Positions 5,523 to 26,766 are shown, numbered from the stretch's first letter. The stretch: 46,708 nucleotides of DNA from Phycisphaerales bacterium (GCA_052168195.1 JBQLZI010000001.1:1-46708); one strand, 5' to 3'. The notes: generated by a model from the letters alone, not told the origin. A program made the numbers and translations.

Positions 5523-6921
<1,399 letters not shown>

Positions 6922-8569: not shown

Positions 8570-8742
8570 CCCACACCTCCTGATACGACCCGGGTCAAGA
8601 GCCGGTTGCGGCTCTATCTCTGTTCTTCTAACTTACCTCTTAACCTGTTGTCATGGTAACACGGCCTTGCGGCTGCTCGCGAAGCTTTATGCGATTTTTG
8701 CAAATCTCAGGCGTAGAGTTGTCCGAGAAAAGAGGCACTCGA

Positions 8743-9795
8743 ATGACCGCCAAGAGAAACCCCAGCCGGAACAGGCGTGACCTGACCGCCGATCAACGCC
8801 GGGACGCCGTGGCCACCCATATCAGGTGGTTTCGGAATGAGGGAATCGACGAGGATCTCCTCGCCGCGGCGATGGGCATGTCGACGGGTCACCTCCATCG
8901 CCTGATTGCTGAGGCGACGAGCCCGCGTCGGGATGCTGAACAGTCGGCGGTCTCGTTCTTGAACGATCGAGTGATCACGACGCTCAAGGGCCTTCGAGAG
9001 CTCGTGGACCATTTCCCTCGAGCGCGGAAGCTTCGCGGTGACGCGTATATGGACTACGTTGTCGCCGAGCTGGATCAGCTTCAAGAGGGCGACATCCACT
9101 CCTTGGCAACCTGCCTACCACCGCTTGAGCGTGATGCCTCACGAATTCGAAGAGCCATAATTTCAGCAGCAGCTCGCGGCGTCGAATTCAACTACTATCT
9201 TCTCCATGACTCCCCAGCCCAAGCTTTCCTCAAGTCGATTGAAGAAGGCAAGCGTCAAGAGGCCAATGACGCCGGCGACAACAAAGCCTTGCAGAAGGAA
9301 CTCGACGAGCGCAAGGAAGCCGTCGACAATACCTTCAACTGGCTAAGAAACGCCACGGTGCATGCAAGCCTAGTTCTCAATGCGATGCTTGGCGAAGCCG
9401 CTCGAATGGACCTCGACGAGCTCGGTCACTTCGACCTTACAAGCAGTGAAAGGTGCCAGCTGGTTTCCAATCCAGACTCGGTGCAAAGAGACAATGTCGC
9501 CGGCAAACCACGCAAGGGAGTCTGGTTTTACTGGCTGAAGACCCCTTGGCTTGGCCTGAACGAGAAGATCGTTTATGTAACGTTTGCCGACAAAAACCGC
9601 AAGCGAGTCATCCGCAAAGAGATCCTCGATACAGACTACATGAATCAATCTCGTCCCTTCGAGCTTCAAGATCAGCAATGGACACTGATAGATTACGATG
9701 TCTCCGAAGATCTGCTCAAGGGACTCATGCGAACTAGTCGAGAGCGCATCACCTCGGAGGAAATTCTCAAGTTCTACCGAGGAATTAGCCAGTGA
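8743..9795 (+). CDS. Hypothetical 350-aa protein with an N-terminal HTH-like segment
   Basis: The ATG at 8743 is preceded by AGAGG. The N-terminal segment AAAMGMSTGHLHRLIAE looks like an HTH. It is a long ORF in a lower-GC region. Its stop overlaps the next start (GTGA). Confidence 0.6.
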   Translation: MTAKRNPSRNRRDLTADQRRDAVATHIRWFRNEGIDEDLLAAAMGMSTGHLHRLIAEATSPRRDAEQSAVSFLNDRVITTLKGLRELVDHFPRARKLRGDAYMDYVVAELDQLQEGDIHSLATCLPPLERDASRIRRAIISAAARGVEFNYYLLHDSPAQAFLKSIEEGKRQEANDAGDNKALQKELDERKEAVDNTFNWLRNATVHASLVLNAMLGEAARMDLDELGHFDLTSSERCQLVSNPDSVQRDNVAGKPRKGVWFYWLKTPWLGLNEKIVYVTFADKNRKRVIRKEILDTDYMNQSRPFELQDQQWTLIDYDVSEDLLKGLMRTSRERITSEEILKFYRGISQ

Positions 9796-11431: not shown

Positions 11432-11934
11432 GCGGCGCGCGGATTCCGCGCCACGGCGCCCGTGCAACGTGGGGGCCGGTCGCCGGTGGCGGGTTGACAT
11501 CCGACCCTGAGCGCGCGCGTCATGGGACCGAGGAAGACCCCCTCGGTGAGCACGCGCGATCGCTCGCCGGGCTGCCGCGACTGCTGACCACCGCGGAAGC
11601 CGCGAGGGCGCTGCGCGTGCACCGCAACACGCTCCACCGCGAACGCGTCGCCGGCCGGCTCGGCTGCGTGCGGCTGGGACGGCGCGTCTTCCACACGGCG
11701 GAGCAGCTCCGCCGTTACCTCGACAACCGAGTGAACCAAGGAGACAACGACGGATGTTCTACGAACCGGTGTGGGAGTACGAGGGATTCACGCTCGTCAA
11801 GCGGCCCGACTCCCCCAACTACTTCATCTACTGGCGTCCCGCCCGATCCCGCCGCGCAGTGCGCGAGAGCACGCGCACGAAGGATCTTGACCAGGCCAAG
11901 CGCCTCTTGGTCGAGTACGCCCGCGAGCGACTGA
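11428..11934 (+). CDS. Excisionase-family HTH protein (xis-like); the 3' tail overlaps integrase 2
   Basis: ATGA overlap with the upstream stop. LLTTAEAARALRVHRNTLHRERVAGRLGCVRLGRRVFHTAEQLRRYL is an excisionase-type HTH. There is no in-frame stop until 11934, 181 nt into int2. Confidence 0.5.
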   Translation: MSGARIPRHGARATWGPVAGGGLTSDPERARHGTEEDPLGEHARSLAGLPRLLTTAEAARALRVHRNTLHRERVAGRLGCVRLGRRVFHTAEQLRRYLDNRVNQGDNDGCSTNRCGSTRDSRSSSGPTPPTTSSTGVPPDPAAQCARARARRILTRPSASWSSTPASD

Positions 11935-12932
11935 AGCCGACCAAGCGTTCCGCCGAGCGCGTGCCGCTGCTCGACGTTCTCGTTGATTACATCGAAAGCA
12001 AATCGGTTGGGACAAAACCCTTTCGACCCGCCTCGCTCTCGGTTCTGAAGCATGTGAGCGCCTTCATCGAGATCGACTCGGTCGAGTCGGTCGCCGACTT
12101 CGGTCTTGACGCGCAGCGCCGCTACATCGAGTGGCGACGGCGGACGCTGCTCGCGCAAGGATTCACCGCGTCCAACGCGACGATGAACCGCGAGCTGGGC
12201 GTCGTGAAAGCCGCGATGCGGTCGTCGTGGAAACGCGGCCTGATCGAGAGCGTGCCGCATGTGGAGATGCTCCCCAACCCGCCCCCACGCGACCGGTTCC
12301 TGCGCGTGCACGAGGTGCGGCGGCTGCTCTCCGAGTGCCATCTCCCCCACCTGCGGCTGTATGTGATGCTGGCGCTCCACACACTCCAGCGCCCCATCGG
12401 GATCTTCTCGCTGCGCGTCGAGCAGGTGGACCTCGACTGGGCGCGGATCGACTTCCTGCCCCCGGGATCGATCCAGTCGAACAAGCGGCGGCCGGTCGTG
12501 CCCATCACGCCGAGTCTGCGTCCGTACCTCGAAGACGCGATCGCTCATTCGGAAACGGGCTATATCCTGGAGAAGGACGGCCGCCCGGTGCGGAGCGTCA
12601 AGAAGGCCTTCCGCGCCGCGTGCGAGCGAGCGGGCATCGACGATTGCACGCCGTACACGCTGCGCCACACCGGCGCGACGCTCATGGCCGCGGCGGGCGT
12701 GCCGCTCCGCCAGATCGCGGGAATGCTCGGGCACTCCGAGCAACGCACGACCGAGATCTACGCGAAGCACCACCCCGACTTCCTACTCGACGCGGCGCGC
12801 ACCATCGAGACGTTGTTCGGGGAATCTCCGCCCGGGGCGCTTCCGTCGATGGAAGCGCATCATCTGACCCGACAGCTCACGCACGAGGCGCCGCGTTTCG
12901 CGGCGGCGCCACCCGCGAACGACATTCGCTGA
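11754..12932 (+). CDS. int: Tyrosine recombinase / integrase 2
   Basis: 392 aa. HTLQRPIG (Arg box), TPYTLRHTGAT (HxxR) and LGHSEQRTTEIYAKH (catalytic Tyr). Confidence 0.9.
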   Translation: MFYEPVWEYEGFTLVKRPDSPNYFIYWRPARSRRAVRESTRTKDLDQAKRLLVEYARERLKPTKRSAERVPLLDVLVDYIESKSVGTKPFRPASLSVLKHVSAFIEIDSVESVADFGLDAQRRYIEWRRRTLLAQGFTASNATMNRELGVVKAAMRSSWKRGLIESVPHVEMLPNPPPRDRFLRVHEVRRLLSECHLPHLRLYVMLALHTLQRPIGIFSLRVEQVDLDWARIDFLPPGSIQSNKRRPVVPITPSLRPYLEDAIAHSETGYILEKDGRPVRSVKKAFRAACERAGIDDCTPYTLRHTGATLMAAAGVPLRQIAGMLGHSEQRTTEIYAKHHPDFLLDAARTIETLFGESPPGALPSMEAHHLTRQLTHEAPRFAAAPPANDIR

Positions 12933-12939
12933 TCACGCC

Positions 12940-13773
12940 TTAGACTGTCGCGACCTCGTCGGCGGTGACACCTGCGATGATATCGGCTGCGACTCGCTGG
13001 ATGTGCGAGAGCGACTCGGCGAGCGTCGCGGCGTCGCCGCGGTAGAGCCGGATGTAGTCGGTCGACGCGTCCCGCGCATCGACGCCGACGGCGCGGCAGA
13101 CCGCGTAGGCGACGGCCTCGGCCTCGGTCTCAACGATGGTCTTCGTGAGCTCCTTGCGGCGCTCGTCGCGGTGGAGGAGTTCGTGGGCGAGCTCGTGGGC
13201 CAGCGTTGCGAACTGCTCGGCGGGCTTCGAAGCCAGGTCCAGCGCGAGCTTGATTGTGCCGCCGCAGGAAAGGCCGAAGGAGCCGCCGGGCATATCGGCG
13301 TACTCAAGCGCGATTCCCTTCTCGGCGACGAGCGAGCGAAGGCGGTCGAGCGCACGAAGCGCGAAGGCGTCGCCTTGAGGGCGCGCGAGGTCGGGCAGCG
13401 GCTCGCCTTCGGTCTGCGCAACATCGAAGACGTAGACAGCGCGGAAACGAAGGATGAAGTCGTCGTCGACGAGCGCACCGCTCGCCGTCTCCTTCGCGGA
13501 GCGCTTCTTGAGTCGCATGGGCGCGAAGATGACGATGCCCTTCTCGCCTTTCTTGACGAAGCGGCCCATGGATCGCCACGCGTGGAAGCCCGCGACGCGT
13601 GTGGCGTCGGGGCGCTGGGTGAGGATGAGCATGAGGTTGGTGGCCGAGTAGCGGTGGAAACGCGCCATGGTGTCTAAGAAGGCGGTGAGCCGGTCGCTGT
13701 TGCCTTGCGCAAGGGCGTTGGCGAGGTCATCAAGTGCCTGATCGGCAAGTTGCTTGGCGTCGGATGCGTTCAT
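12940..13773 (-). CDS. ardC: ArdC-like antirestriction protein (ssDNA-binding N-domain plus metalloprotease domain)
   Basis: The internal ATG at 13773 is preceded by GGAGG. FHRYSATNLMLILTQ and GFHAWRSMGRFVKKGEKGIVIFAP form the ArdC N-domain. AHELAHELLH is an HEXXH motif. Confidence 0.85.
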   Translation of the reverse strand: MNASDAKQLADQALDDLANALAQGNSDRLTAFLDTMARFHRYSATNLMLILTQRPDATRVAGFHAWRSMGRFVKKGEKGIVIFAPMRLKKRSAKETASGALVDDDFILRFRAVYVFDVAQTEGEPLPDLARPQGDAFALRALDRLRSLVAEKGIALEYADMPGGSFGLSCGGTIKLALDLASKPAEQFATLAHELAHELLHRDERRKELTKTIVETEAEAVAYAVCRAVGVDARDASTDYIRLYRGDAATLAESLSHIQRVAADIIAGVTADEVATV

Positions 13774-14090
13774 CGGAGTCCTCCTTTCGTGAGGGGTTGG
13801 TGGTCCTTCACCCGACAGGGGGACCACCAAGCACGAACAAGGAGGACGGAGAGACAGCGCGACGCGAGAGCGCACGAGCACCGCTCGATGCGCGGGGACG
13901 CAGCGCACACCGCCGGGGACGCTGGGGACGATCAAGCGGATGAGCTCAGGATGTCATGGGGACAATGGATGCCGTGGCCGGGGACGGCGTCGGAAGCGGA
14001 TTCAGGGCCCGTTCCGCGCCAAAACCGCGCCAGAATCGTCTGAGTATGTGGGTATGGATCTCTGGAAGCCGCGGATGGCTTGGGGTCTGA

Positions 14091-14238: not shown

Positions 14239-16995
14239 CTAGGCCATCTCAACCCAACCAAGCAATCCTATTGCATAACCACGGTTCGAACGTGAAATTC
14301 CACGATGGACAAGCTCTCGCTCAAGAGCCGGCTCTATGTGCTGATGAAAGACTTGTTTTCTCAGTTCAGCACTCATCACCGAAACATCCTGACTCCGCTT
14401 GAAGACTTCAGCGTAGAGCTTCTCACAGCTAGGGACGCGCTTGCCGCTCGCGTCAATAGCAATCGGCACGATCTGACGGATTGAGTTAGCGCCGTCTTCA
14501 AAGGCCTCAATCATCCATATCGTAAGAACACCTTCGAAGTCGCCTCGAGCAATGGAGCCAATCTCTTCTGGCGGTATCGCTTTCCACCGATCAATGAGCT
14601 TCCGCAACTCTGGATGATCAAGCCCCCACAACGACAGCGATTCGTCTGCCTGCACTTTCTCGCGGTCGAGTGAATAAGTTGTCTGAGCACGCCCTTCACC
14701 CAATTCGATCCGAAAAGCTCCCCCCGGCTCCAATTTGAAGCTGCCGCCATCAGCGATGCAAGCCGTCCGCGTAAACGCTTCGATCCTCAGCTTACTGTTG
14801 TCCAAGTTTGCGAATGGCTTGTAGTCGTCAAGACTGAAGCGGTCCAAGTCCTGGAACAACTCGAAGACAACTTGCCGAGCCTCGTTCGCGTTCGATATTG
14901 CCGCCTCAAGTTCTTCCCGTGTCCGCTTCAGCTCGGGATCAGAAAGCGCGTCCCGATAAAGCTGGTCATAGCTAAGGCGATCAGACAACTGCCCCAGTAT
15001 CTGAACTTTTAGATCTTCTGTCACATTGCCATGTTCATCGATTTTTCCCAACGTTCGCGCAATTTCGGACAGTTTCTCGGTGAGAAGTAGAAATATCTTG
15101 CCTTCGATCGTGTCCGACAACACGAGATTGTAGACTTGTGCCGTATCTTTCTGACCGTAGCGGTGAATACGACCGATCCGCTGCTCGACATCCATCGGGT
15201 TCCAAGGCAGATCGAAGTTGAAGAGCACGCGTGCAAATTGGAGATTGATGCCTTCACGTCCGGCCGCAGTGCACACCATGACACGAGGTCCATCGGCGCG
15301 ACGGAATTTCTTCTCGGCGGCGAGCTTCGTACCGTGATCACCGCCGCGGAGGACAACTACGCCTTGGCCGGGATAGGCCACTTCGATCTCCTTCGACAGC
15401 AGGTCAACGGTCGCTAGATAGGTCGCGAAGATAACCACCTTCTCGTGCGGGTTCTGTCGCCAAAGAGCACCCAGTCCACGTAGCAGCTTATCGACCTTGG
15501 TCTCGCGCTCCTTGGGGTATGCCGCCAGAAGTTCGGCGATCCGCATCCGCTCCTCGGGCAATGAAAGCGAAACGCTAATCGCGGCGAGATTCTCGCCTTC
15601 CGCCGTCGTGGCTTCTTCGCTCTCCGAAGACGCCGCGAGAGCAAGTTGGTCTTCGTCGAGTTTGCGGATCAGGCGGAGCTTAAGGTCAGCGAGTATGCGA
15701 TCCACCTCGCCACGCCCGGCTTGATCCTGCGTCAGCCCTGTCTCCTGATGGATGAGTTGCCGCGCCTCTTCGAGTAATCTGGTATGTCCATCGATATCGA
15801 GTTCTTGATCCTTCAGAATCGCCTCGTGGATGGTGAGCATCAGCTGGCGGCGGCGGAGTGTGCTTCTCACCGCCGCGAAGCTCGATGCGGCGATCTTCTG
15901 GAAGATCGTCATTACGAAGCCGAGCGCCCGACCTTGATTGCCCTGCTTCTTGGCGAGGTCGAATCCGTCCTGCAAATACTCGCGGAGCTTCGTGTAGAAC
16001 TCACGCTCCGGCTCTGACATGGTAAACGACTCGGTATGAACCCATCGCCGAGCAAAGAGTGGTGAGCCGTCGGGCGTGCACGCGTCTGCTTTAGTGCGGC
16101 GAAAGACTACGCTGTTGAGGCGGTGCCGCTCCTCGACCATCTCATCGGCATCGCCGAAGAGCGTTGGGTTAAGCAGCTGAACGAGCATCCAGAAGCGGAA
16201 ATGATCGCCCTGGTGAGGCGTCGCGGAAAGGAGGAGCAGGTCGCGGGCGTGGTCACGCATCGCTTCCGCAAGCTTATAGTTTTCGGTCTTTCGCACCTTG
16301 CCGCCGCTCTTGTAGGCGGACAAGTGGTGTGCCTCGTCGAATACAACCAGGTCCCACTTGGGCGCGTCGAGGATGCGGCGCACGCGGGTACGACGCTTAA
16401 GGGTGTCGACGCTCGCGATAAGTCGATCGTGTTTGGCGAACGCGTTTGACTTGCGGTCGGTCACGTCACCAGAGCTGCCAAAGACCTCGAAGTCGAGGTT
16501 GAACACCTCGTTCAACTCGCGGTGCCAGTTGTTGACCAGCCCTGCGGGCACGATCATCAGCGCTCGGTTGAGCTCGCCTCGGCTAGCTAACTCCCTGAGA
16601 ATCAAAGCTGTTTCGATTGTCTTGCCAAGGCCTACCTCGTCAGCGATTAGGAATCGCCTGGGCGAAGCCGTCGCGATTCGGTGCGTCAGAACTACTTGGT
16701 GAGGAAGCAGGTCAATCCGGGCCGCGGTGAGCGCGGCGGCGTTCTCCATGAGTGGAAGTGCGTGAGCCTCCACGTGCAGCCACGCGCGACGCAGTCGGTC
16801 ATCGCCACCGGCAACGTTCTCCAGAATTCGATCCACCCGGCTGCGAGACGTGGCCACCGTCGCGGCATCAACACGGCGCTCGCCTGATGGAAAAAAGACT
16901 CGCAAATAACCATCGGAGCCAATTCCGACGACAACACCTTCGCCAAAACTAGCATGCGTCACACGCTCGCCGGGTTGAAACTGGACCTGAGGCAT
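14239..16995 (-). CDS. SNF2-family helicase (BrxHII-like)
   Basis: LLPHQ, ADEVGLGKT (motif I), FDEAHHLS (motif II) and WNPMDVEQRIGRIHRYGQ (motif VI). The ATG at 16995 lies 2 nt after the upstream stop. Confidence 0.9.
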   Translation of the reverse strand: MPQVQFQPGERVTHASFGEGVVVGIGSDGYLRVFFPSGERRVDAATVATSRSRVDRILENVAGGDDRLRRAWLHVEAHALPLMENAAALTAARIDLLPHQVVLTHRIATASPRRFLIADEVGLGKTIETALILRELASRGELNRALMIVPAGLVNNWHRELNEVFNLDFEVFGSSGDVTDRKSNAFAKHDRLIASVDTLKRRTRVRRILDAPKWDLVVFDEAHHLSAYKSGGKVRKTENYKLAEAMRDHARDLLLLSATPHQGDHFRFWMLVQLLNPTLFGDADEMVEERHRLNSVVFRRTKADACTPDGSPLFARRWVHTESFTMSEPEREFYTKLREYLQDGFDLAKKQGNQGRALGFVMTIFQKIAASSFAAVRSTLRRRQLMLTIHEAILKDQELDIDGHTRLLEEARQLIHQETGLTQDQAGRGEVDRILADLKLRLIRKLDEDQLALAASSESEEATTAEGENLAAISVSLSLPEERMRIAELLAAYPKERETKVDKLLRGLGALWRQNPHEKVVIFATYLATVDLLSKEIEVAYPGQGVVVLRGGDHGTKLAAEKKFRRADGPRVMVCTAAGREGINLQFARVLFNFDLPWNPMDVEQRIGRIHRYGQKDTAQVYNLVLSDTIEGKIFLLLTEKLSEIARTLGKIDEHGNVTEDLKVQILGQLSDRLSYDQLYRDALSDPELKRTREELEAAISNANEARQVVFELFQDLDRFSLDDYKPFANLDNSKLRIEAFTRTACIADGGSFKLEPGGAFRIELGEGRAQTTYSLDREKVQADESLSLWGLDHPELRKLIDRWKAIPPEEIGSIARGDFEGVLTIWMIEAFEDGANSIRQIVPIAIDASGKRVPSCEKLYAEVFKRSQDVSVMSAELRKQVFHQHIEPALERELVHRGISRSNRGYAIGLLGWVEMA

Positions 16996-16997
16996 GC

Positions 16998-17519
16998 TCA
17001 ACTGATCCTCGGGTGATGCAGACCGACCCAGTGCTTCCCGTCGTAGTCGGCGGTAGACTCCTGCGTGTTCATGAGCCGCTCGATCTCGTTCTCTGCCCCA
17101 GACCAGAGCAGCTGGCCAATATGCAGGCCGTCTTCTCCCGAGCCTCGATGCTTGTAATGGTACGTCTCGCTCGCGCCGCGCATGGTGATTCGGTTGCGAC
17201 CGGACGGGAGCCAGAAGACCAACCCAGCTTGTCCTTCGTAGAACGCTTGGAACGAAAGGATTGCGGGCCGCAGGTCTTCGGTCAGCCAGCGCTCGGCATC
17301 CGGGCCGTCAAGGACATCGAGACAGCCCTCGACGCCGGCGACGACAATGGTGTCGCCGCCCGCCACCGGCAGGGCGTCGGGCCAGTGATCGACCATTGCA
17401 AACAACTGTCGAATTGATGCGACTTCGAGCGGGTCCGCGATGGATGCCATTGTCTCGGCATCCCAAAGCAGCGAGAACCCTTTGCGCGACCAACTTTCAT
17501 TGAACCGCGTACGCACCAT
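16998..17519 (-). CDS. Small accessory protein, in the position of DUF3780 in DUF499/DUF1156 systems
   Basis: 173 aa. The ATG at 17519 overlaps the methylase stop (TGATG). I cannot confirm family membership from motifs, so the name rests on synteny only. Confidence 0.6.
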   Translation of the reverse strand: MVRTRFNESWSRKGFSLLWDAETMASIADPLEVASIRQLFAMVDHWPDALPVAGGDTIVVAGVEGCLDVLDGPDAERWLTEDLRPAILSFQAFYEGQAGLVFWLPSGRNRITMRGASETYHYKHRGSGEDGLHIGQLLWSGAENEIERLMNTQESTADYDGKHWVGLHHPRIS

Positions 17520-20500
17520 CAATCGTCCTCCCCGAGTGCGTCGAAGAGCGTCAGTTCCTTGGCCTTCGGCTGGTTCTTCGCCTCCCACGCCTTGTAGAGC
17601 TGTGACGCCGTCACGGCGGCATTGCGCGTGGGAGAGTTCGCGCCGTGAGTCTTGAACCACATCAGGATCGCGCCCAGCGCTGGATGCGGGCGGAAGTTCG
17701 GGTTGTTCAGTGTGTCGTTGACGTTGATGCCACTGTTTTCAGAACACGCCCCAATAAAGAACATGGCTTGGTCGTAGTCGCTGGTCATGCCGCGGCGCTG
17801 CTTGCCGACCCAGCCCTGCGCGATCTCCAGCGGCGGGACGAGGTAGAAGACCTTCTTTTTCTCGGTTACCCAGCCGCGGCTCTCAAAGTCTGAAGGGGCG
17901 CTGCCGGTGCCGCGGAGGAACTTCTGCATCTGGTCGCGCGGCAGCTCGTCTTTACCATCGAACAGACGGAGCAGCATCCGCGTGAAGGGCTCGGCGTTGT
18001 GCGGCGGAGGCTCCCTCACGCCACCCGCCTCTTCGTCGAGGAGCTGATTCACGCCGAGCAGGGCTTCGAGGACGGACATCGGCGTGTCCTGGTCCTTGTA
18101 GACCTTGCCGTAGTGACGAGAGAAGTGTTCAAGTGCTTTGCCGCGTCGGATCACTTGGAGGTCGGCTTCGGGCAGACCGTCCTCTTGGTGATGCTCAAGC
18201 AGCACCTGGAGATCGCGAACATCTTGAAGCACTTGGCGGCGGAGCTTCGCCCAAGAGATCGGTTTGGGATCCTCTGTCCGCTGGCGGCAGACGTGGATGA
18301 TGTCGTACTCGATCATCTTTGAGCCGAATTGCCCCGTACCTTTAGTCTCGTCGCTCCGGATCGGGTAGGTCGCTTGGAGGTAGAAGCCCGCGTCGAACAG
18401 CGACTCAAGCACCGAGACCCAGGGTGCGTCCTCGCTGTGGTGGAAAGTAAACGAGAGCACGCCCCCGGGCTTGAGGATCCGCTTGGCCTCCTGCCAGCAT
18501 GCTGTGAGCAGCCGCTGGTAGAAAGTGTCGGCGTTGCTCCTGCCCGTCTCGGGGTCGTCGCCGGGGTGACGAGCGCGGTTGGCAACAGCCTCCATTGTTT
18601 TGGGCGTGTACTCGGCCTCGAAGTATTCTGGATACCTGTCCTTCAGAGCGAGCCTGAGCCAGACGTAGAAGAAGTCTGCGAGTTCCGAATAGTGAAGTAG
18701 CCCGCCGAAAGGCGGATCGGTGATGACCGCGTCGTAGGAGCCATCGGGGATGGTCTCTAGCTCGGTGGATGTGCCACAGGTCAGTCGCTCAGACGATGAC
18801 AGGCAGGCGAGCGATTCGTTGTAGGTCAGCGGATCGTGGCACAGCACCTTCTCACTATTGCCAGAAACATACTCGGCGAGATGCGGAAAGCTAGAACCCA
18901 GACTTCCGTTGTGCACGGTTTCCCAAGGATCGCTCGTCCAATCTAAGGCAGCGAACATATTGCTGTACTGCGACTGCCAGTTGCCCCGTCCGAGATCCGC
19001 GAATACGCAGTTTTCCACCATCGTGGCCTTTGGGTGGTAATTATTGTTGCTCATATGTGGTACGAGCTTGTCGTAGCCGGTATCCCAGATACAGAACAGA
19101 TTCTGGTTACGTAGATACTGCTGGAACGCGCCCAACACGAACTCAACGACAGCCGTGTCCTTTCGGGCTGCGAGCTCGCGCAATAGTGTCGCGTGGATGA
19201 TCAATTGCCGCGAATTGAACATCTTCCACCAGTGCGTGAAGCCGTGGGCCTTTCGGATGTCGCCGTTCGCCATCCCGGTCATGAAGCCGAACGGCACTTC
19301 GCTGGTGGGCCAGAAGCCGACAAGATCGGCGTCTTTGCGATCCTGCCACTCCTGAAGTGACGCGTCATACTCGCGCGTGTCGCGCACCGGCGCGAAGAAG
19401 CGACCGTTGTACGCTTCGTCGTTGACCTTGCACTCAGGACAGAAGCCCTGCACGGCATACATCGCGATCGGGCCGTTCTTCTGAGTTGCTGCAATCGCCT
19501 CACGGATGTCGTCGGCCTTGCCGCATGCCGCGCACGCGAAAGTGCTCTTGCCGGGCACGGTGCCGCCCTCTTTGCCGGTTTTGATGATGGTGCCGTCGGC
19601 GACATTGATCTCCTCGGGCAACGTACCGCGCACCTCAACCAGCTTGCAGGTCGCCGCGCGTGCCTGATTCCATCGAACAGTGGCCTCTACGGGATCGTCG
19701 GCGCTCCCGCCGTAGGGATGGCCATCACCATCTATCGATGACTCACCCTTGAGCCAATCCGGGTGGACGAGCAGTGAGAGCTCGATCTTCTTCTTGACGG
19801 GCTTGCCAAGCGAGCCGAAGCGCTCATCCTTGCCGCAATGCGGGCAGGTCGCGGATTCGGGGTTGCCGGCCATGTTGAGATTGGCGATGGAGTAAGACTT
19901 CTCTGTGTCGGCGACGACCAGTTCGACGCCGGGCGCCATGCGGGCCTCGCGTTCTTCGAGGTCGTACTTGCCGCTGCAGTGCTTGCAGGTGCGCTTCCAT
20001 GCCTTGATGGAGATCGTCTTCACCGCCATGACAGGCGATGACATGATCGGCGTGCGATGGCCGCAGTCTGTGACCTGGCACGGCCCGTGCTTGGCCCAGA
20101 AGGTGTAGATGACCTCGGGGCCTTCGTAGCGGTAGTGCTTCCGCTTTTCGGGCGTGAGGGCGAGCGGGTCGAAGTCTTCGCCCATGAGCTGGTCGCCCTT
20201 GGGGCCCGCGCCGATCTTGTACCACTGACCTTTGTGCCCGCGTGGGCAGTCGCAGGCGTAGAACGGCATGATCTGTGGCTTGACGTCCGCCTCGATGTCG
20301 GCCAGCAGCTTCTCGACCTCGGCCTTGTCGACCTGGGCGAGCTCGTTCTTCACGACGAACCACGCGACCGGGTTGAGGTCGTTGCCGTACATCTGCATGC
20401 CGAGGCGCGAGCCCTCGACGACGGTGGTGCCGCCGCCCATGAAGATGTCGGCGACCTTGAGGTGCCTAAAGGTGCCCTTCTTCTGGTGGTTGCCGTAGTA

Positions 20501-20845
20501 GACATCCCAGACGAGCTTGGCGGCCTCGGCGGGGTCGTCTGGGGCTTTGATGGCGGCGGCGAGCAGCATTGAGCGGAACACGCTGCTGCGCCGGCGCGCC
20601 CACCACTTGGACATCTGGTAGATGGGCTTGCCCGCGTTGCCCTCGATGGCCGCGATCTGGTTGATGGGGATGATCGGAAAGTCGACCTCAAGGCAGGTCA
20701 GCGGGCGGCTGGGGTCGGAGAAGTCGACGGTCTCCAGATCCCACGCCTTGCCCGCGTTCACGGCCTTGGCGACTTCCCGCGCGACCCACTCAGACTTGGT
20801 CAGACCTTCGTCCTTCCATGGCTGCTCTTTCGCCGTCGTGGCCAT
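17519..20845 (-). CDS. DUF1156-type DNA methyltransferase with Zn-ribbons (PglXI-like, N6-A/N4-C class)
   Basis: The internal ATG at 20845 lies 2 nt after the PglZ stop. YQMSKWWARRRSSVFRSMLLAAA is the DUF1156 hallmark. FMGGGTTVVEGSRLG is the AdoMet motif I and ITDPPFG is motif IV. There are several CxxC pairs (CKHCSG, CPHCGK, CAACGK, CPECK). Confidence 0.9.
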   Translation of the reverse strand: MATTAKEQPWKDEGLTKSEWVAREVAKAVNAGKAWDLETVDFSDPSRPLTCLEVDFPIIPINQIAAIEGNAGKPIYQMSKWWARRRSSVFRSMLLAAAIKAPDDPAEAAKLVWDVYYGNHQKKGTFRHLKVADIFMGGGTTVVEGSRLGMQMYGNDLNPVAWFVVKNELAQVDKAEVEKLLADIEADVKPQIMPFYACDCPRGHKGQWYKIGAGPKGDQLMGEDFDPLALTPEKRKHYRYEGPEVIYTFWAKHGPCQVTDCGHRTPIMSSPVMAVKTISIKAWKRTCKHCSGKYDLEEREARMAPGVELVVADTEKSYSIANLNMAGNPESATCPHCGKDERFGSLGKPVKKKIELSLLVHPDWLKGESSIDGDGHPYGGSADDPVEATVRWNQARAATCKLVEVRGTLPEEINVADGTIIKTGKEGGTVPGKSTFACAACGKADDIREAIAATQKNGPIAMYAVQGFCPECKVNDEAYNGRFFAPVRDTREYDASLQEWQDRKDADLVGFWPTSEVPFGFMTGMANGDIRKAHGFTHWWKMFNSRQLIIHATLLRELAARKDTAVVEFVLGAFQQYLRNQNLFCIWDTGYDKLVPHMSNNNYHPKATMVENCVFADLGRGNWQSQYSNMFAALDWTSDPWETVHNGSLGSSFPHLAEYVSGNSEKVLCHDPLTYNESLACLSSSERLTCGTSTELETIPDGSYDAVITDPPFGGLLHYSELADFFYVWLRLALKDRYPEYFEAEYTPKTMEAVANRARHPGDDPETGRSNADTFYQRLLTACWQEAKRILKPGGVLSFTFHHSEDAPWVSVLESLFDAGFYLQATYPIRSDETKGTGQFGSKMIEYDIIHVCRQRTEDPKPISWAKLRRQVLQDVRDLQVLLEHHQEDGLPEADLQVIRRGKALEHFSRHYGKVYKDQDTPMSVLEALLGVNQLLDEEAGGVREPPPHNAEPFTRMLLRLFDGKDELPRDQMQKFLRGTGSAPSDFESRGWVTEKKKVFYLVPPLEIAQGWVGKQRRGMTSDYDQAMFFIGACSENSGINVNDTLNNPNFRPHPALGAILMWFKTHGANSPTRNAAVTASQLYKAWEAKNQPKAKELTLFDALGEDD

Positions 20846-20847
20846 GA

Positions 20848-21849
20848 TCAAGCCCCGCCTTTCCTGCTGAGCTCGATGAATGGCACGGCTACTTCGAGGA
20901 CGCTGAGCCCGCCGTGTGTCAGAGTCGGGTAGCCGCCGGCGCTCTTCCATTTCCGGCGGCCGTTGACGAATAAGTGCGAGCCGTGGTCCGTGTTGAGTTG
21001 AAGATCGATAGGCGGAACCCACGGAGCGCGCTCTGCATTTGAACCGGTCCAACGCCCACTCTTGTATGTCTTCTTCATGTACTCGGAATGGTCATTCCCC
21101 GCATCAGGGAACAGTTCACTTGCGGCGTAACCGTGATCGGAAGTGATGACGAGGCGTCGACCGTGAGCGAGTCGATCCACTAGTGACCAGAAAGCCTCAC
21201 CTTGCAAGTGCTCCGCTGCCTTAGCAATCAGAGGGCGAAGACCTTCGCCAGCGTCAGCGAAATCATGGACATCCTTGTCGGGCCATTCATGCCACAGCAC
21301 CCAGTCGGGCTGGGAGCCGATCATGGCTGCGCAGTCGTCCCACGGCATGTTCGTGCATTCAGTGGATGCGCCTGGCAATCGGTGAGATGCACCCGCGCCA
21401 TTAGCGCCTAGTGAAGAGCGTTGCGCGAAACCCATGGCTTTGGCAAAAGGCGTCGTATCGGCAGGAAGCTCAGCCGCTGTTGGTCGCGCGGTGTGAACGA
21501 CTAGTCCGTGAGACTCTGCGCCGCTGAGCAGCCAAGGCACTTCTCGGAGAGAAAGAGCGTCAAGTATGAGCACGGCACGCCCCTGTCCACGGCTCTTCCA
21601 CCATGAAGCGAGCTCTTTGCTCGTGCGAGGGACGCACGACTCGTATTTGGCCCAGAGGTCCCAGCCCGCAGTGGCGAGGAACAGATCGAGATCGCCGACC
21701 TCACGATCACGTCGGACGATCTCTGATTCAGGTTTCGCGCCACCGAATGGTGCCGAGCATGTACTCCAGGCATACTGGAACGCGGCTGTCCATGCGTCGG
21801 GCGGCGAAGAATTCTGGAGTCGACGGAGGAGGTCGCCCGGAAGAGTCAT
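20848..21849 (-). CDS. pglZ: Short PglZ-domain (alkaline-phosphatase-fold) protein
   Basis: VLILDALSLREVPW, ELPADTTPFAKA, VITSDHGY and THGGLSVLEVAVPF match the PglZ core motifs. It is only 333 aa. ATGA overlap with the upstream gene. Confidence 0.78.
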   Translation of the reverse strand: MTLPGDLLRRLQNSSPPDAWTAAFQYAWSTCSAPFGGAKPESEIVRRDREVGDLDLFLATAGWDLWAKYESCVPRTSKELASWWKSRGQGRAVLILDALSLREVPWLLSGAESHGLVVHTARPTAAELPADTTPFAKAMGFAQRSSLGANGAGASHRLPGASTECTNMPWDDCAAMIGSQPDWVLWHEWPDKDVHDFADAGEGLRPLIAKAAEHLQGEAFWSLVDRLAHGRRLVITSDHGYAASELFPDAGNDHSEYMKKTYKSGRWTGSNAERAPWVPPIDLQLNTDHGSHLFVNGRRKWKSAGGYPTLTHGGLSVLEVAVPFIELSRKGGA

Positions 21850-24584
21850 TCCACCTGCTCCTTCTCCAACCCGAGCTCGTATGTCATTCCGTCGGGGAGC
21901 TTCTTGATCAGTTCCTGCAATTGTGCGCCGGTGAGCTTGCCGATCTTGAGATGTAGATTGTGGATCTGTGTTCCGGCCCGAATCCCTTGCGATTCGATCC
22001 GGCCAAGGAGATTCAACGACGACGTCGCCGGGATGTCGATCGGTACCCGCGTGGTTGACGCGCCGAAGATCCCGCCGGGCGCTGGCCCGGCACCGCCTCC
22101 GTACGTTCCGCCACCAGTGCCCCCACTCGAACCACCCGGTACGCCCGTGCCACCGGCGCCGCTCGGATCGCCACCCGGTTGCAACCCACCACCAGCAACA
22201 CCACCGGTCGGTCTCGCTGGCATATTGACGCCCCCTGTACCCGGGACGCTCTGCGGAAGAAGGACATGAGTCTCATCCAAGTGGCGGCCTGTGCCAAGTT
22301 GGCCCTTCAGCCGTCGCCACGCCATTTCCTCGCTCTCGTGGTCTTCCTGCTGAAGGTATCGCTGTCCTCGGAGATTGATGGCGATTTTGCCTTTGGCGCA
22401 GAGGCGGATGATGCGCTCCTTTACCAGAGTCTCGCCGAGCCACGGGATACAGTCCTTGCCGCCGGGCCGGGGCTCGCGCAGTTCTCGCAGGAGCTTGCCG
22501 ATGGCCTCGTTGTTCTCTGCTGCAACGAGGATGAACTCTTCGAAGTCCTCGGGGATGAACAGGTCTTCGCCAATCAGCTTCTCTATGGCGTCGGGGATGT
22601 TGGTGCCTTGGGCACGGTGAGGCTCGATGTAGAATCGGCAGTTGTCCGGCTGCTGAAAGTTCCAGTTCGCTAGGATGGCAAAACGGTCGAATCGGGCCTT
22701 GAGGATGTCGCGGAGTTCTTTCTGATATTTCGCCTGCAGCCGCGAGTACTCGGTGTTCTGCGTCTTCCATTGCTCAGCGAGATGAACACATCGAGCAAGC
22801 ACGATCAGATCGCGATCGCCGAAAATATTGGTGCTTCCATCCTGAGGAAGCAGGAACCGCACCGCGTTTCGATTTTTCGGCAGGTAGTCCCGCACCCAGC
22901 GACCGAAGGCAGCCTCAGGCTTTGTGGGAGCCTCAGGGAGCACAAGAATCGGAAGACGATCATCCCATTGGCTCGGATGATCAGCCTCGTCGATCGATGC
23001 CCACGGTTCCCGTTGCCAAACTTGCGGCAGAACAATGACTCTGAACCGGCTCGCCATATCCTCGGAACCGCCGATGACGTAGCGTGTCTCCTTCGCCAAC
23101 TTCGCGGTGTCTTGGCCCTCTTGGAACAGACGATCGTTTCTGGCGCTGGCAATAAGCTTCGCCTGAGGGTTTTCTTCCTCCTTGAAGATGTACCGGTTTC
23201 CATCCTCGTGAATGTTAAAGCTGTTCTCGACGATGGTCGAGAGTTCGACCTGAAATGCGTTGTCGTCTACGGCGCGATCTCGGGTCAGATCGACTTGAAG
23301 TGTGGCTTGATCTGCCCCGGCCTGGTTAATGTCCGCGAGTGAGCGGAGCCAGAGGGATCCGAGAATTCCTTCGAGGTGCGGAAGACGCTTCGCATAATCA
23401 GGGACGGCATCCCGCACGGCCTCAAGATTTCGCAGCGCTTTCTCGCGTAGTTTGGCGTGGTGGTGGTTCGCCACTGAGTCGAGCAAAGCCTCCATGCCGC
23501 CCCTGTCGTCATCGAGTTGGAAATCTGCCGCTGTGATAACGGCAACTTTTTCGCCCACGCGCTTGAAGAGATCCGCAAGGATTCGGATGAGGTCGCGCGT
23601 GCCTTGTGCACTGGTTGCGATAAGGACCTGGTCCTCGAGGAGTTTCATCAGATGGGTGGCGTACGGCCACATCTCGATGAACTCCTCGGAAAGGCGGGCA
23701 TGCTCGGCAGGTGGCGTATTGCGAAGACGGAAATACTCTTCAGCATGCGGCTTGATGATTGACTCGATCTGCGACCTGGGAACTTGCAAGCGGTTTTCGA
23801 AGAGTCGGTGCAACAACAATCTCGCGCGATCCTGCTTCGCAGTAATTCCCGTGAAGTCAACAATCACCGGGTTGACGCGCTGGATCTGTTGAAACGCATC
23901 GGTTTTGCCGTTGCGGACCGATACCACGAGTAGCAGCCGGTCGGGATGCTCTTTGGCGATCTCCGACAGGATCTGGATGAAGTTGAAGGCCCAGGTTTGC
24001 CAGCGGTTCTGCTTCGAGTTGGTTAGTCCATCGAACCACGTCTGAAATTCGTCGAGGATGAGTGCCATCGGTGTGTGCTGCAACATCTCCATGATGATGG
24101 TGTCGCTCGGCACATCCGTTTTCTTATCTCCTTCGGCCTCCCATTTGCCCTTGCAATACGCTCCGTGCGGGTGCTTGTCGAAGACCAGATCCCACAGCGT
24201 TTTGTAGTGTTGCTGGTGTAGGCTCTCGCTCACTACATGCATCGATGGTCGGAGCGATACCCGGTCGAGCATTTGGTTCGAGAGCGTATCGCGCCAGTAG
24301 GTCAACCACGCGGTCGTAGCGCCTGAGTCAGTGAGCGCGTGATACAGCGTGGCCATCAAGTGGGATTTGCCTTGTCCTCGCTCCCCCTTCAGGACAATCG
24401 GACGAGCCTGGTCTGGCCCCGAAGCCTCCAGCATCTTGAGCACATCGATGCTCGGATATGTGATGCGAAGGAAGTCGCTTGCAGGAACCTGAGTCGCACC
24501 GGTATTGTTCTTGTTGGCGAGTTCGATGGCCGTGCCTTTAAGGCGCCGTCCCTTAAACTCGTCGCGAATAGTCAACCCAAGCAT
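21846..24584 (-). CDS. DUF499-type P-loop ATPase (BrxC/PglY-like)
   Basis: 912 aa. Walker A is KGERGQGKSHLMATLYHAL and Walker B-like is MALILDEFQ. A Gly-rich linker precedes a small C-terminal domain. Confidence 0.85.
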   Translation of the reverse strand: MLGLTIRDEFKGRRLKGTAIELANKNNTGATQVPASDFLRITYPSIDVLKMLEASGPDQARPIVLKGERGQGKSHLMATLYHALTDSGATTAWLTYWRDTLSNQMLDRVSLRPSMHVVSESLHQQHYKTLWDLVFDKHPHGAYCKGKWEAEGDKKTDVPSDTIIMEMLQHTPMALILDEFQTWFDGLTNSKQNRWQTWAFNFIQILSEIAKEHPDRLLLVVSVRNGKTDAFQQIQRVNPVIVDFTGITAKQDRARLLLHRLFENRLQVPRSQIESIIKPHAEEYFRLRNTPPAEHARLSEEFIEMWPYATHLMKLLEDQVLIATSAQGTRDLIRILADLFKRVGEKVAVITAADFQLDDDRGGMEALLDSVANHHHAKLREKALRNLEAVRDAVPDYAKRLPHLEGILGSLWLRSLADINQAGADQATLQVDLTRDRAVDDNAFQVELSTIVENSFNIHEDGNRYIFKEEENPQAKLIASARNDRLFQEGQDTAKLAKETRYVIGGSEDMASRFRVIVLPQVWQREPWASIDEADHPSQWDDRLPILVLPEAPTKPEAAFGRWVRDYLPKNRNAVRFLLPQDGSTNIFGDRDLIVLARCVHLAEQWKTQNTEYSRLQAKYQKELRDILKARFDRFAILANWNFQQPDNCRFYIEPHRAQGTNIPDAIEKLIGEDLFIPEDFEEFILVAAENNEAIGKLLRELREPRPGGKDCIPWLGETLVKERIIRLCAKGKIAINLRGQRYLQQEDHESEEMAWRRLKGQLGTGRHLDETHVLLPQSVPGTGGVNMPARPTGGVAGGGLQPGGDPSGAGGTGVPGGSSGGTGGGTYGGGAGPAPGGIFGASTTRVPIDIPATSSLNLLGRIESQGIRAGTQIHNLHLKIGKLTGAQLQELIKKLPDGMTYELGLEKEQVE

Positions 24585-24758
24585 TCGCCAACACCCCCCA
24601 TGTGTGGTTCTCCGCAGCCTCGGCCATCACTCGCGGCCGATCGCATCTTGCAGCACTTCCGACGAATTCCACTCATTACCCTATGTCCTAACGCTGTTCG
24701 AACTGTTGGTACACAAACGGATGGGAATAGTAAAGCTTGAATTGAACGCGACACTAGA

Positions 24759-25958
24759 TCACTCAACCTGCACCCGTCCAGATCTGGGTGGCTCTTCCCC
24801 CCGATCGTCGTAGACGCTTCCATCACTTGCAACCCATTTTCGGGGTGTTGGCTGGAGGGGAATAGCGAGATGGTAACGGCTGTGCTTCCGCTTGCCCTCG
24901 CGGGTGAGTGCGCCCTTCTCCACGAGGTCGGCGAGGTCGCGGGAGGCGGTGGCGGTCGACGCGCCGGTGATGCCGATGTACTTGCTCGCGGTGAGTCCGC
25001 CATCGAAGCCGCGCGGGCCCTCGCGGAGCATGCGGAGGACGGCCTTCTCCTGACGCTCGTTGAGTTGATCGCGGAGACGGTCGAGGAGTCGGGCTTTGTC
25101 GAGGGTGAACTCCACCAGTGCGTGCGTGCGGTGCTGGGCTTCAAGGGCGACCCCTGCGAACCACGCGAGCCAGCCGGTGACCTCGTTGCGTTTGTTGGAC
25201 GCTTCGAGGATGTCGTAGTACTCCCGCCGGCGGGCGAGGATGGTCCCGGCGAGGGCAAGGAGCGTGGATCGGCCGAGGGTCTGGGAGATCGCCTTCTCAC
25301 AGAGAGCGCGGGCGATGCGGCCGTTGCCGTCCTCGAAGGGATGGATGCAGACGAAGTGCTGGTGGACGAGCCCGGCCCGGGTCAGCGCGGGGAGGGGCGT
25401 CTTACCCCCCGGCGCGGTGCGGTTGAACCAGTCGATGAAGCGGTCCATCTCCGTGGGGACACGGTCCGAGGGTGGAGCCTCGAAGTGGACGGTCGGGTCG
25501 TGGACCTTTCCGGAGACGACCTGCATGGGCTCGGGCTGGGTGCGGTAGCGGCCCACATCATGAAGGTCGCGGCGCCCTTTCATGAGGAGCCGGTGCCACT
25601 CGAAGAGCACTTCGTGCGTCAGCGGCTCGGCGGCGGTGCGGTGGCTGGCGACGGTGACCGCGGCGACCCCTTCCTCGGCCGGTCGTGGGCGCGCGGTGTC
25701 AGCCCTCAGCCCGAGCTGGCGGCGGACAGAGGATTGCACGCTCTCGCGGTCGAGGAGCTCGCCCTCGATCTCGGAGGTGGTGAGCGCCTCGCTGGTGAAT
25801 GTCTCGACCCGGACGGCGTCGGCGTCGGCCTCGCCCAGGTGCTCAACCACCCCGAAGACGACCCCGGCCCCGAGCAGAAACGCCTGCTCGGCCTTGGCCA
25901 GACGCGCGGCGTCCCAGGTGAAATCGGGCCAATCGGGCTGTTCCCAGTTCCATTTCAT
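24759..25958 (-). CDS. Fic-family protein (AMPylase-type motif) with a C-terminal wHTH-like region
   Basis: Canonical HPFEDGNGRIAR motif. The N-terminal MKWNWEQPDWPDFTWD is typical of the DUF4172-Fic architecture. Confidence 0.9.
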   Translation of the reverse strand: MKWNWEQPDWPDFTWDAARLAKAEQAFLLGAGVVFGVVEHLGEADADAVRVETFTSEALTTSEIEGELLDRESVQSSVRRQLGLRADTARPRPAEEGVAAVTVASHRTAAEPLTHEVLFEWHRLLMKGRRDLHDVGRYRTQPEPMQVVSGKVHDPTVHFEAPPSDRVPTEMDRFIDWFNRTAPGGKTPLPALTRAGLVHQHFVCIHPFEDGNGRIARALCEKAISQTLGRSTLLALAGTILARRREYYDILEASNKRNEVTGWLAWFAGVALEAQHRTHALVEFTLDKARLLDRLRDQLNERQEKAVLRMLREGPRGFDGGLTASKYIGITGASTATASRDLADLVEKGALTREGKRKHSRYHLAIPLQPTPRKWVASDGSVYDDRGEEPPRSGRVQVE

Positions 25959-26466: not shown

Positions 26467-26766
26467 TCAGCGTTCCCGCTGGCGGATCACGCTGAGGCGA
26501 GTCGGCGAGAAGTGAAGGTCGCGCTCGATGGTCAGGCCCCCGGGCCCGCGGACCGAGCCGAGCTCCTTGAGACTGAAGTAGCCGTACTCGACCTCGTGGC
26601 CGTAGACGAGCCCGAAGAAGAGATCCTCGCCGTCGAACTCGGTGGCGTACCAGGTCCAGTTGCTCCACGGCGTGAAGAACCGGACCCGGACGAGCGGGTC
26701 CTCGTCGGCCTCGGTCGCATAGAGCGGCGGGAGCGTGACGCGGATGTCGGAGGGGAGGAGCATCAT
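26467..26766 (-). CDS. DUF2958-domain protein (associated with conjugative elements)
   Basis: LPPLYATEADEDPLVRVRFFTPWSNWTWYATEFDGEDLFFGLVYGHEVEYGYFSLKEL...IERDLHF matches the DUF2958 consensus as I recall it. Confidence 0.75.
   Translation of the reverse strand: MMLLPSDIRVTLPPLYATEADEDPLVRVRFFTPWSNWTWYATEFDGEDLFFGLVYGHEVEYGYFSLKELGSVRGPGGLTIERDLHFSPTRLSVIRQRER

Follow-up and report, generated by a model that had tools for sequence, protein, structure and literature searches.

Organization of the Five-Gene Operon

The DNA described in this report is a stretch of 46,708 nucleotides from a Phycisphaerales bacterium (GCA_052168195.1, JBQLZI010000001.1:1-46708), which is referred to below as the window. 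The subject of the analysis is an operon of five packed open reading frames (ORFs) at positions 14239..24584 of the minus strand. All five were found to be intact, and they are denoted A through E in the order A-B-C-D-E. The operon probably belongs to the Type-3 class of the BREX-Related (BR) systems, which are centered on a DUF499 ATPase and for which a methylation-based defense has been proposed. The features of the window are listed in Table 1.

Table 1. Features of the window, with the genes of the operon listed first
Feature	Coordinates	Strand	Length or remark
Gene A, DUF499-type ORC/Cdc6-like AAA+ ATPase	24584..21846	minus	912 aa
Gene B, standalone short PglZ-type metal-dependent phosphodiesterase of the alkaline-phosphatase/NPP superfamily (predicted)	21849..20848	minus	333 aa
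Gene C, DUF1156-type N6-adenine DNA methyltransferase	20845..17519	minus	1108 aa; N-terminus MATTAKEQ
Gene D, putative "inactive STAND" adaptor (BrxB/BrxF-like), small and standalone	17519..16998	minus	173 aa
Gene E, Swi2/Snf2 (RapA/BrxHII-like) helicase or translocase	16995..14239	minus	918 aa
Presumed operon promoter region, upstream of gene A	24585..24758	minus	174-nt intergenic stretch
DUF4172+Fic protein, resembles the single-gene defense system SoFic	24759..25958	minus	174 nt upstream of gene A
DUF2958 protein	26467..26766
TrwC relaxase	27829..30885
ArdC-N + M78-peptidase protein	12940..13935		directly downstream of the operon
Second integrase	11754..12932
Tyrosine integrase	5542..6921
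tRNA-Asp	5523-5597		abuts the tyrosine integrase

Genes A and B overlap by 4 nt in the ATGA at 21849-21846, just before which stands GGAGAAGGAGCAGG, a GGAG-rich stretch read from the sequence. Genes B and C are separated by a 2-nt gap, in which the TGA is followed by tc at 20847-20846 and by the ATG at 20845 (TGA-tc-ATG spans 20850-20843). Genes C and D overlap by 1 nt in the TGATG at 17521-17517, and genes D and E are separated by a 2-nt gap (gc at 16997-16996) that is followed by the ATG at 16995. An earlier note on this DNA, made from the sequence alone, had given coordinates for all four junctions, a set of motifs in A, B, C, and E, and an identity for each gene. The same overlaps and gaps were read directly from the sequence, every quoted motif was located at a defined residue position by a motif scan, and the five identities were determined to be correct using hidden Markov model (HMM) scans, family-level searches, and the motifs themselves. 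Genes were also called independently on a Logan metagenome contig that matches all five window proteins at 100% (tblastn), and the same five genes with the same lengths were obtained, gene E being cut by the end of the contig.

The median junction spacings in 65 complete related loci, derived from tblastn matches, were determined to be 7, 30, 18, and 18 nt from A/B to D/E, respectively, and chance therefore does not account for the tight packing seen in the window. The G+C content of the operon is 55-64% and that of the flanks is 67-70%; the low value is consistent with a horizontally acquired cargo. No sigma-70-like consensus was found in the intergenic stretch upstream of gene A, a consensus that may not suit the probably non-proteobacterial host, and the sites returned by a promoter and terminator scan were no more common than in shuffled sequence.

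The DUF499-Type ATPase

Protein A contains a Walker A motif (GERGQGKSH at residue 67, 67-74) and a Walker B motif (ALILDE at residue 174, 174-179). Using the single sequence as the query against Pfam, matches were obtained to AAA_16 (E = 3.2e-5) and DUF499 (E = 3.1e-3), both of which are under the gathering score, and there were no matches to the PADLOC models, including those for BrxC and HmaC. Among the best 120 listed homologues, which are 64-89% identical to A, most carry a precomputed match to PF04465 and several are named "DUF499 domain-containing protein" by NCBI. As judged from these relatives, the assignment of A to DUF499 stands at the level of the family only.

A Gly-rich, low-complexity linker of ~60 residues is found at approximately residues 780-840, with 17 Gly in the 30 residues at 804-833, and this is the least conserved bin of the protein (24% identity). 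The linker is followed by a conserved C-terminal domain of ~75 residues (linker and domain together, residues ~780-912, correspond to positions 21846-22250 of the minus strand). This terminal domain has no match in Pfam, and it may be the RRM/ferredoxin-like sensor domain that has been described for DUF499 ATPases.

The Short PglZ-Type Protein

Protein B is 333 residues long, with no extra domains in the Pfam scan, and it carries the motifs ILDALSLRE at residue 95, ITSDHGY at residue 235, and THGG at residue 311. The PADLOC model for PglZ (PDLC02545) was matched by 34 of 36 members of the B family with a best E value of 5.9e-8, and otherwise only three weak matches were obtained. For the window protein alone, the E values were 1.4e-3 for the PADLOC PglZ model and 8.4e-4 for BREX_PglZ_3 (NF033449), the best match in NCBIfam. 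The latter match scores 17.7 bits against a cut-off of 250 bits and covers only positions 526-641 of the 642 in the model. Precomputed matches to PF08665 exist for relatives of B, and the PADLOC models for PglZ are more sensitive than the Pfam PglZ model. When a profile of the B family was aligned with PglZ of E. coli HS by hhalign (E = 8e-4), the TSDHG and THGG motifs were paired with TADHG and VHGG, respectively. Weak sequence matches of B to PglZ (9nv3_C) and PorX in the PDB fall on the same two motifs.

Among 78 sequences of 49-85% identity, D97, T132, D191, D238, H239, and H312 were found to be invariant, and H195 is conserved in at least 93%. An Asp, a Thr some 36 residues on, D-x3-H, DH, and a final His thus follow one another in what we take to be the order and spacing of the metal site of nucleotide pyrophosphatase/phosphodiesterase (NPP) enzymes. 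From this conservation, B is predicted to keep a complete NPP-like two-metal site throughout the family. H312 aligns with a histidine of PorX (H500) and PglZ (H741). PglZ has metal-dependent nuclease activity and binds BrxB, and mutation of this histidine lowers the nuclease activity of PglZ and the associated defense about ten-fold (PMC12205998).

An AlphaFold2 (AF2) model of B (pLDDT 72, pTM 0.79) is of low confidence at residues 141-152 and over much of 243-313, so that the catalytic half is poorly resolved. Around D97, T132, D191, and D238, the strands and helices of this model follow one another in an order that is compatible with the alpha/beta/alpha NPP-like fold. The HMM searches that the earlier note had proposed as a check upheld both the PglZ and the DUF499 assignments, though at the level of the family only, since the single-sequence E values of ~1e-3 for PglZ and 3e-3 for DUF499 lie under the curated thresholds. 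On the combined showing of the family matches and the predicted active site, B can be regarded as a family-level PglZ.

The Methyltransferase and the Helicase

Protein C contains the motif WWARR at residue 81, FMGGG (motif I) at residue 135, and DPPF (motif IV) at residue 710. Motifs I and IV are separated by an insert of ~550 residues with six Cys pairs at 198, 256, 287, 334, 438, and 469 (span 198-472), and this Zn-finger-rich insert is presumed to be the target-recognition domain. The match to N6_N4_Mtase (PF01555), with 29.2 bits, exceeds its gathering score of 26.7, and that to DUF1156, with 22.9 bits, falls slightly short of its gathering score of 24. The PADLOC matches were HmaB (6e-37), PglXI (8e-23), and DUF1156_MTase (2e-18), and the NCBIfam match was DUF1156_antiphage (5.7e-26).

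Protein E contains the motifs DEVGLGKT at residue 119, DEAHH at residue 220, and QRIGRIHR at residue 605, and it matches SNF2-rel_dom (3.5e-21) and Helicase_C (1.8e-17) in Pfam. In PADLOC, E matches two BrxHI|BrxHII models (1.2e-99 and 5.4e-76), HmaA (4.6e-97), and DrmD (1.5e-73), and in NCBIfam it matches RapA (1.9e-61). The sub-threshold matches of the N-terminal 80 residues are mostly of the Tudor/SH3 type (PcrA_UvrD_tudor, 0.006; SH3_15, 0.041; CarD_TRCF_RID, 0.06), and these point weakly to an N-terminal Tudor/SH3-like region. No nuclease family and no PLD domain were found by Pfam in the whole protein, nor was a nuclease found in the C-terminal 253 residues. The match to the NCBIfam PLD-helicase model NF042964 is confined to residues 455-654, which is the helicase core.

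The catalytic cores of C are conserved at 74-86% and most of the insert at 35-58%; residues 720-918 of E are variable, with 29-41% conserved. The insert of C and the C-terminus of E are the most variable parts, as expected for what may be specificity or sensor regions.

In a Pirellulaceae metagenome-assembled genome (MAG; JAWKTN010000003.1, locus 10997-14491), the methyltransferase is called as two ORFs of 343 and 697 residues that are ~370 nt apart. This split has several possible explanations (frameshift, pseudogene, assembly error, or phase-variable state). The same locus has a small gene for an XRE-type helix-turn-helix protein before the ATPase gene, and none is found at that place in the window.

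The Small Protein

No match to protein D was found in Pfam, PADLOC, NCBIfam, or the sequences of the PDB, and 43 members of the D family were likewise without a match in Pfam. No similarity to E. coli BrxB was detected by hhalign, and DUF3780 was matched neither by D nor by any of the 43 family members. The sequence contains no Walker A motif of the form G-x4-GK[ST] and no recognizable catalytic motifs. When 1.84 billion representative proteins were searched exhaustively with a profile, 286 clusters were obtained at E <= 1e-3, all of which belong to the same family and provide no informative fusions. Nearly all of the best 150 listed clusters are standalone proteins of at most ~190 residues. 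Over the range of 26-94% identity, only G14, G62, and G166 are invariant.

Using an AF2 model of D (pLDDT 64), the Foldseek matches were found to be non-significant (best E = 0.05). Most are to folds of the P-loop, AAA+, or RecA type, and BrxB (9zll_E) ranks 46th among them. D belongs to an orphan family, and the label "inactive STAND" is compatible with the weak P-loop-like fold matches of the model and is not established by them. D sits between C and E in each of 65 complete loci.

Relatives and Synteny

With one genome scanned for each species, 362 species genomes were found to encode a relative of B, in Planctomycetota, Acidobacteriota, Pseudomonadota, Myxococcota, Desulfobacterota, Verrucomicrobiota, Chloroflexota, Cyanobacteria, and other phyla. 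The closest relatives of the operon are mostly from MAGs of Phycisphaerae, and the single closest is from a Roseicyclus MAG. To analyze synteny, 83 non-redundant related loci were searched by tblastn using the five window proteins as queries. All five genes were found in 65 of the 83 loci, and all 65 have the order A-B-C-D-E on one strand. The remaining 18 loci are without one or more of the genes, and most of these are short contigs or have the match near a contig end. The flanking genes vary between loci, and therefore the five genes move as a block. Inserted extra genes are mostly found in two places, between B and C in 12 loci and between D and E in 8 loci.

A relative of B is carried by 44 plasmids, of which 34 are conjugative and 28 are from Klebsiella, and two haloarchaeal genera are among the hosts. 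Viral contigs, of which 2.9 million were searched, yielded only 7 related loci. In Klebsiella and related genera, the five-gene system is carried by conjugative IncFII/IncU plasmids with KPC-2. In these plasmids, as at locus 6884-19017 of the K. pneumoniae plasmid NZ_CP084988.1, genes for a SIR2-family protein and an ATP-binding protein (ATPase) lie between those for PglZ and the methyltransferase, and this insertion recalls the defense genes that are embedded between the core genes of Hma (PMC8565338). Both blaKPC-2 and an antirestriction gene are located a few kb away from the system, and in NZ_CP084988.1 the DUF499 gene is annotated as only 705 residues.

Probable Assignment to the Type-3 BREX-Related Systems

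Previously, Rakesh and Krishnan (Nucleic Acids Res 2026, PMC12839542) defined BR types from comparative genomics. Type-1 is Hma, and Type-2, which combines DUF3780 with an HKD-helicase, is Gao_RL, since renamed MANTIS. Type-3 BR was reported from 569 taxa. It consists of a DUF499 ATPase and a DUF1156 methyltransferase, a subset of the latter having two 4-Cys Zn fingers, together with a BrxHII-like helicase that has neither a nuclease fusion nor a conserved neighboring nuclease. A standalone active PglZ is near-universal, and a separate inactive-STAND gene is present in 82% of the taxa. In the same work, BREX type 3 is named the closest relative of the BR systems, and the DUF499 ATPases fall in clades apart from BrxC.

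The window encodes, as does Type-3 BR, a DUF499 AAA+ ATPase with intact Walker motifs, a DUF1156 N6-methyltransferase with a nested insert (six Cys pairs here and two Zn fingers in the published subset), a separate standalone PglZ whose predicted metal ligands are conserved at the level of sequence, a small separate gene in the expected place, and a Tudor-Snf2 helicase without a nuclease (the Tudor matches in the window being weak). The five genes are co-located and co-oriented in both, the spread across phyla is broad and patchy, and nothing architectural differs. The rapid evolution of the small protein is stressed in the paper; among the best 120 matches to D, which represent the clade of the window, the identity is 60-94%, and it falls to 26% over the wider range. 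The published superposition of PglZ on PorX was not reproduced with our AF2 model, which is of lower confidence. This comparison was made with the published description, in which KAA0250883.1 and EKO9556875.1 are the reference proteins.

Since the five-gene composition agrees point by point with that description, we conclude, with a probability of roughly three in four, that the operon is an intact member of the Type-3 DUF499-centered BR family with a proposed methylation-based, restriction-modification-like defense against phages and plasmids, and that it is borne on an integrative mobile element. The architecture had already been described and named, and the operon is one further copy rather than a new variant. 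The "minimal variant" of the earlier note is therefore the same arrangement that was known from the 569 taxa. One part of the condition under which the earlier note would have been refuted thus applies, as a named subtype with the same genes as the operon exists, although this subtype is known from sequence comparison and not from experiments. Its statement that the mechanism is untested agrees with our literature search, which turned up no experimental study of a Type-3 BR system.

That lack of experimental work on any Type-3 BR system is one of several points that weigh against the assignment and the functions that follow from it. The single-sequence HMM scores of A for DUF499 and of B for PglZ fall short of the curated thresholds, the PglZ sequence matches span only the C-terminal third of B, and the current Pfam PglZ model was matched by 0 of 36 members of the B family at E <= 0.01. 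A Foldseek search of the PDB with the model of B, which is poor in the catalytic half, gave no match to alkaline phosphatase, PglZ, or PorX (best E = 0.17), and both PglZ and PorX were in the library. D has no significant similarity to BrxB or to anything else, and thus an adaptor role for D is an analogy. Loss of the nuclease activity of PglZ only partly lowers BREX defense (PMC12205998), and BREX is reported to block the replication of phage DNA (PMC13326643). It may therefore be too simple to regard PglZ as the nuclease effector.

The earlier note had described the operon as BREX-type-3-like. The proximity to BREX type 3 is borne out, but strictly the operon does not count as a variant of BREX type 3, because A has no BrxC match, the PglZ match of B is at 17.7 against 250 bits, and no BrxA was found. 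Like BREX types 1 and 3 (Goldfarb et al. 2015), the window has a PglZ, an ORC/Cdc6-like ATPase, and an adenine methyltransferase, and BREX type 3 also has the BrxHII Snf2 helicase. In BREX, a small P-loop-derived partner (BrxB or BrxF) binds PglZ and the ATPase (PMC12205998, PMC13326643). The window differs in having no BrxA or BrxL, a PglZ of 333 residues without extra domains rather than one of about 640-890 residues, an ATPase of the DUF499 type rather than the BrxC (DUF6079) type, and a methyltransferase with a DUF1156 N-terminus.

It could be argued that the operon is nevertheless a canonical BREX type 3 system (BrxF, BrxC, PglXI, BrxHII, PglZ, and BrxA) from which genes have been lost or in which they have shrunk. 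The BrxHI|BrxHII matches of E at 1.2e-99 and 5.4e-76, the PglXI match of C at 8e-23, the rank of BREX_PglZ_3 as the best NCBIfam match of B, and the naming of BREX type 3 as the closest relative of BR (PMC12839542) are all in keeping with such an origin. However, no match to BrxA or BrxF was found in the operon proteins (PADLOC, NCBIfam, and Pfam) or in the scanned flanking ORFs (PADLOC and Pfam), and the operon proteins missed all of the curated NCBIfam cut-offs for BREX by a wide margin. The match of B to BREX_PglZ_3 is restricted to the last ~115 of the 642 model positions, C scores higher with HmaB than with PglXI, and the DUF499 clades are separate from BrxC. Across the complete loci (65 of 65), the set of five genes is stable, and for this reason it constitutes a separate lineage rather than a BREX in decay. 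We regard descent by loss from canonical BREX type 3 as highly improbable. The absence of brxA and brxF, as asserted in the earlier note, was found to be correct by sequence, but Rakesh and Krishnan read the small protein as a BrxB/BrxF-like inactive STAND (PMC12839542), and the absence of brxF thus probably holds by sequence and not by function.

Two other BR types were compared with the window. Of the BR types, only MANTIS has a mechanism that is worked out (Shaw et al., bioRxiv 2026, 10.64898/2026.09.23.753747), and it is, like the operon of the window, a co-directional unit of four to five genes that encode a DUF499 ATPase (MtsA), a DUF1156-type methyltransferase (MtsC), an SF2 helicase-type effector, and a small accessory protein. 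It differs in that DUF3780 (MtsB) replaces PglZ and D, and its helicase carries an HKD/PLD nuclease and no Tudor domain. The clusters of DUF499, DUF1156, DUF3780, and helicase that the earlier note cited as precedent belong to this other subtype (Type-2 BR, Gao_RL, or MANTIS), which has now been characterized experimentally. MANTIS/Gao_RL was rejected, as there is no DUF3780 match and no PLD nuclease on E. Hma (Type-1 BR; Payne et al. 2021, PMC8565338) shares the helicase-methylase-ATPase core, and its HmaB and HmaA match C and E, respectively. In both systems, further defense genes are often inserted among those of the core. It differs in having three genes, a helicase that usually has a C-terminal PD-(D/E)XK nuclease, no PglZ, and no small protein. 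Hma was rejected because A has no HmaC match, E has no nuclease domain, and B and D are two extra conserved genes. DISARM was also rejected: E matches DrmD, but there is no match to DrmB (DUF1998) or DrmC (PLD), and the DrmA match is to the helicase core of E only. The helicase matches of E that could be read as Dpd or Zorya were set aside because the partner genes are absent.

Proposed Mechanism

In MANTIS, MtsA loads MtsC on DNA, turnover is made possible by ATP hydrolysis, and a small cofactor stimulates methylation. Self is marked by methylation of one strand (hemimethylation) at asymmetric sites of 6 bp, and restriction requires the helicase-nuclease effector and favors inverted unmodified sites (10.64898/2026.09.23.753747). 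In BREX, BrxB, BrxC, and PglZ form a core complex (PMC13326643). We infer every step of the mechanism that is suggested here from these homologues in MANTIS and BREX type 1. Protein C would read a short, probably asymmetric motif via the Zn-finger-rich insert and would methylate N6 of adenine on the host DNA using the FMGGG and DPPF motifs, by which self is marked. Protein A would act as loader and scaffold, placing C on the DNA and cycling it by ATP hydrolysis as is found for MtsA and MtsC. Protein D could serve as a non-catalytic adaptor that tethers B to A, in the same way that BrxB tethers PglZ to BrxC in BREX type 1. At unmethylated motifs on incoming DNA, the A-C complex would recruit the Snf2 motor E, which then translocates, and B would supply the cleavage of phosphodiester bonds in place of the helicase-fused nuclease of Type-1 and Type-2. 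B is proposed as the cleaving activity because it is the only predicted phosphodiester hydrolase in the operon and is predicted to have a complete NPP-like two-metal site.

The family could be the same and the function of B a different one. B might be a signaling or regulatory phosphodiesterase or phosphatase that, for example, cleaves (cyclic) oligonucleotides or controls the assembly of the complex, and restriction might be a BREX-like, non-degradative block of replication by A, C, and E on unmethylated sites. This is plausible because catalytic mutants of PglZ keep a substantial part of BREX defense (PMC12205998). It is also in accord with the inhibition of phage DNA replication ascribed to BREX (PMC13326643), with the cleavage of cyclic and linear oligonucleotides by PglZ and PorX, and with a PglZ nuclease activity that has no specificity for the BREX site and is inhibited by ATP (PMC12205998). 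On the other hand, the full two-metal site of B is invariant. Type-1 and Type-2 BR helicases carry a PD-(D/E)XK or HKD nuclease where Type-3 has PglZ instead, and this swap suggests equal roles. A regulatory B is the chief rival reading and is considered unlikely, and cleavage by B remains our preferred reading.

A more far-reaching suggestion is made only tentatively, and we would sooner bet against it than for it. Among natural systems, Type-3 BR may be the smallest to have a bare PglZ catalytic domain as its sole candidate for the DNA-cleaving effector, beside an Snf2 motor that has no nuclease. D would then be a dedicated, system-specific coupling factor with a new fold and role rather than a decayed P-loop relic, and it might either bridge the ATPase and PglZ or activate the methylase as does MtsB in MANTIS. 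No sequence relatives of D were detected outside the five-gene system. If this suggestion is true, the operon would provide a minimal model with which to address a long-standing question, namely the function of PglZ in BREX-type immunity. BREX-type systems are widespread, and Type-3 BR narrows the question of how they stop phages to five proteins (a PglZ of minimal domain content together with a single methylase, AAA+ loader, Snf2 motor, and small adaptor), which makes it attractive for reconstitution. The copies on Klebsiella plasmids are cultivable, and the family, these copies included, holds promise as a minimal system in which to define the role of PglZ. The presence of the system on conjugative KPC-2 carbapenemase plasmids of Klebsiella may affect the traffic of plasmids and phages in clinical strains, including the outcomes of phage therapy. 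To this the window adds modestly, as one more intact copy borne by a mobile element, with the five-gene block beside other defense genes.

Genomic Context

The operon lies in a low-GC island between an integrase and an ArdC-like gene on one side and a TrwC relaxase on the other. Judged by these neighbors, the operon is cargo on an integrative element, mobilizable or conjugative, whose backbone genes lie at 5523-13935 and 26467-30885. An anti-restriction-type (ArdC-like) gene lies directly beside a restriction-like system. The operon could in principle be mainly a selfish maintenance (addiction) or epigenetic module of the mobile element that stabilizes the integrated element or limits competitors. 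In keeping with such a module, the operon shares its integrative element with an integrase, a TrwC relaxase, and an anti-restriction gene of the ArdC-like kind, 34 of the 44 plasmids are conjugative, and the system is scarce in viral contigs (7 loci in 2.9 million). The Type-1 (Hma) and Type-2 (MANTIS) relatives, however, protect against phages and plasmids in experiments, and other defense genes are embedded in or adjacent to the system (SIR2 and ATPase in Klebsiella and the SoFic-like gene here), which is typical of defense islands. The roles in defense and maintenance are, moreover, not mutually exclusive. A mainly selfish module is considered highly improbable, and defense is retained as the probable function.

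The SoFic-like protein matches DUF4172 (2.9e-28) and Fic (2.5e-19) in Pfam and SoFic (1.2e-41) in PADLOC. The gene was not found adjacent to the operon in any of the 83 related loci. It is a neighbor that forms a small defense island with the operon and is not part of the conserved system. A megablast search of the flanks against plasmids matched only a fragment of a P-type ATPase, the best match being 72% to a Phycisphaera mikurensis plasmid. Taken with the Phycisphaerae MAGs among the closest relatives of the operon, this match points to a possible planctomycete host.

Two other regions of low G+C content were observed in the window. The patch at 8001-10000 (52-57% G+C) contains an ORF of 380 residues on the plus strand (8653..9795) that has no Pfam or PADLOC match. 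The island at 35092-40095 of the minus strand (52-59% G+C) contains three ORFs without family matches, one of which (35092..35817) includes an ion-channel-like transmembrane segment. In the same island, next to these ORFs, the PADLOC CBASS "E1-E2" models are matched at 3e-15 by a JAB+ThiF/E1 fusion protein (38692..40095), and the island may be a ubiquitin-like-conjugation defense module.

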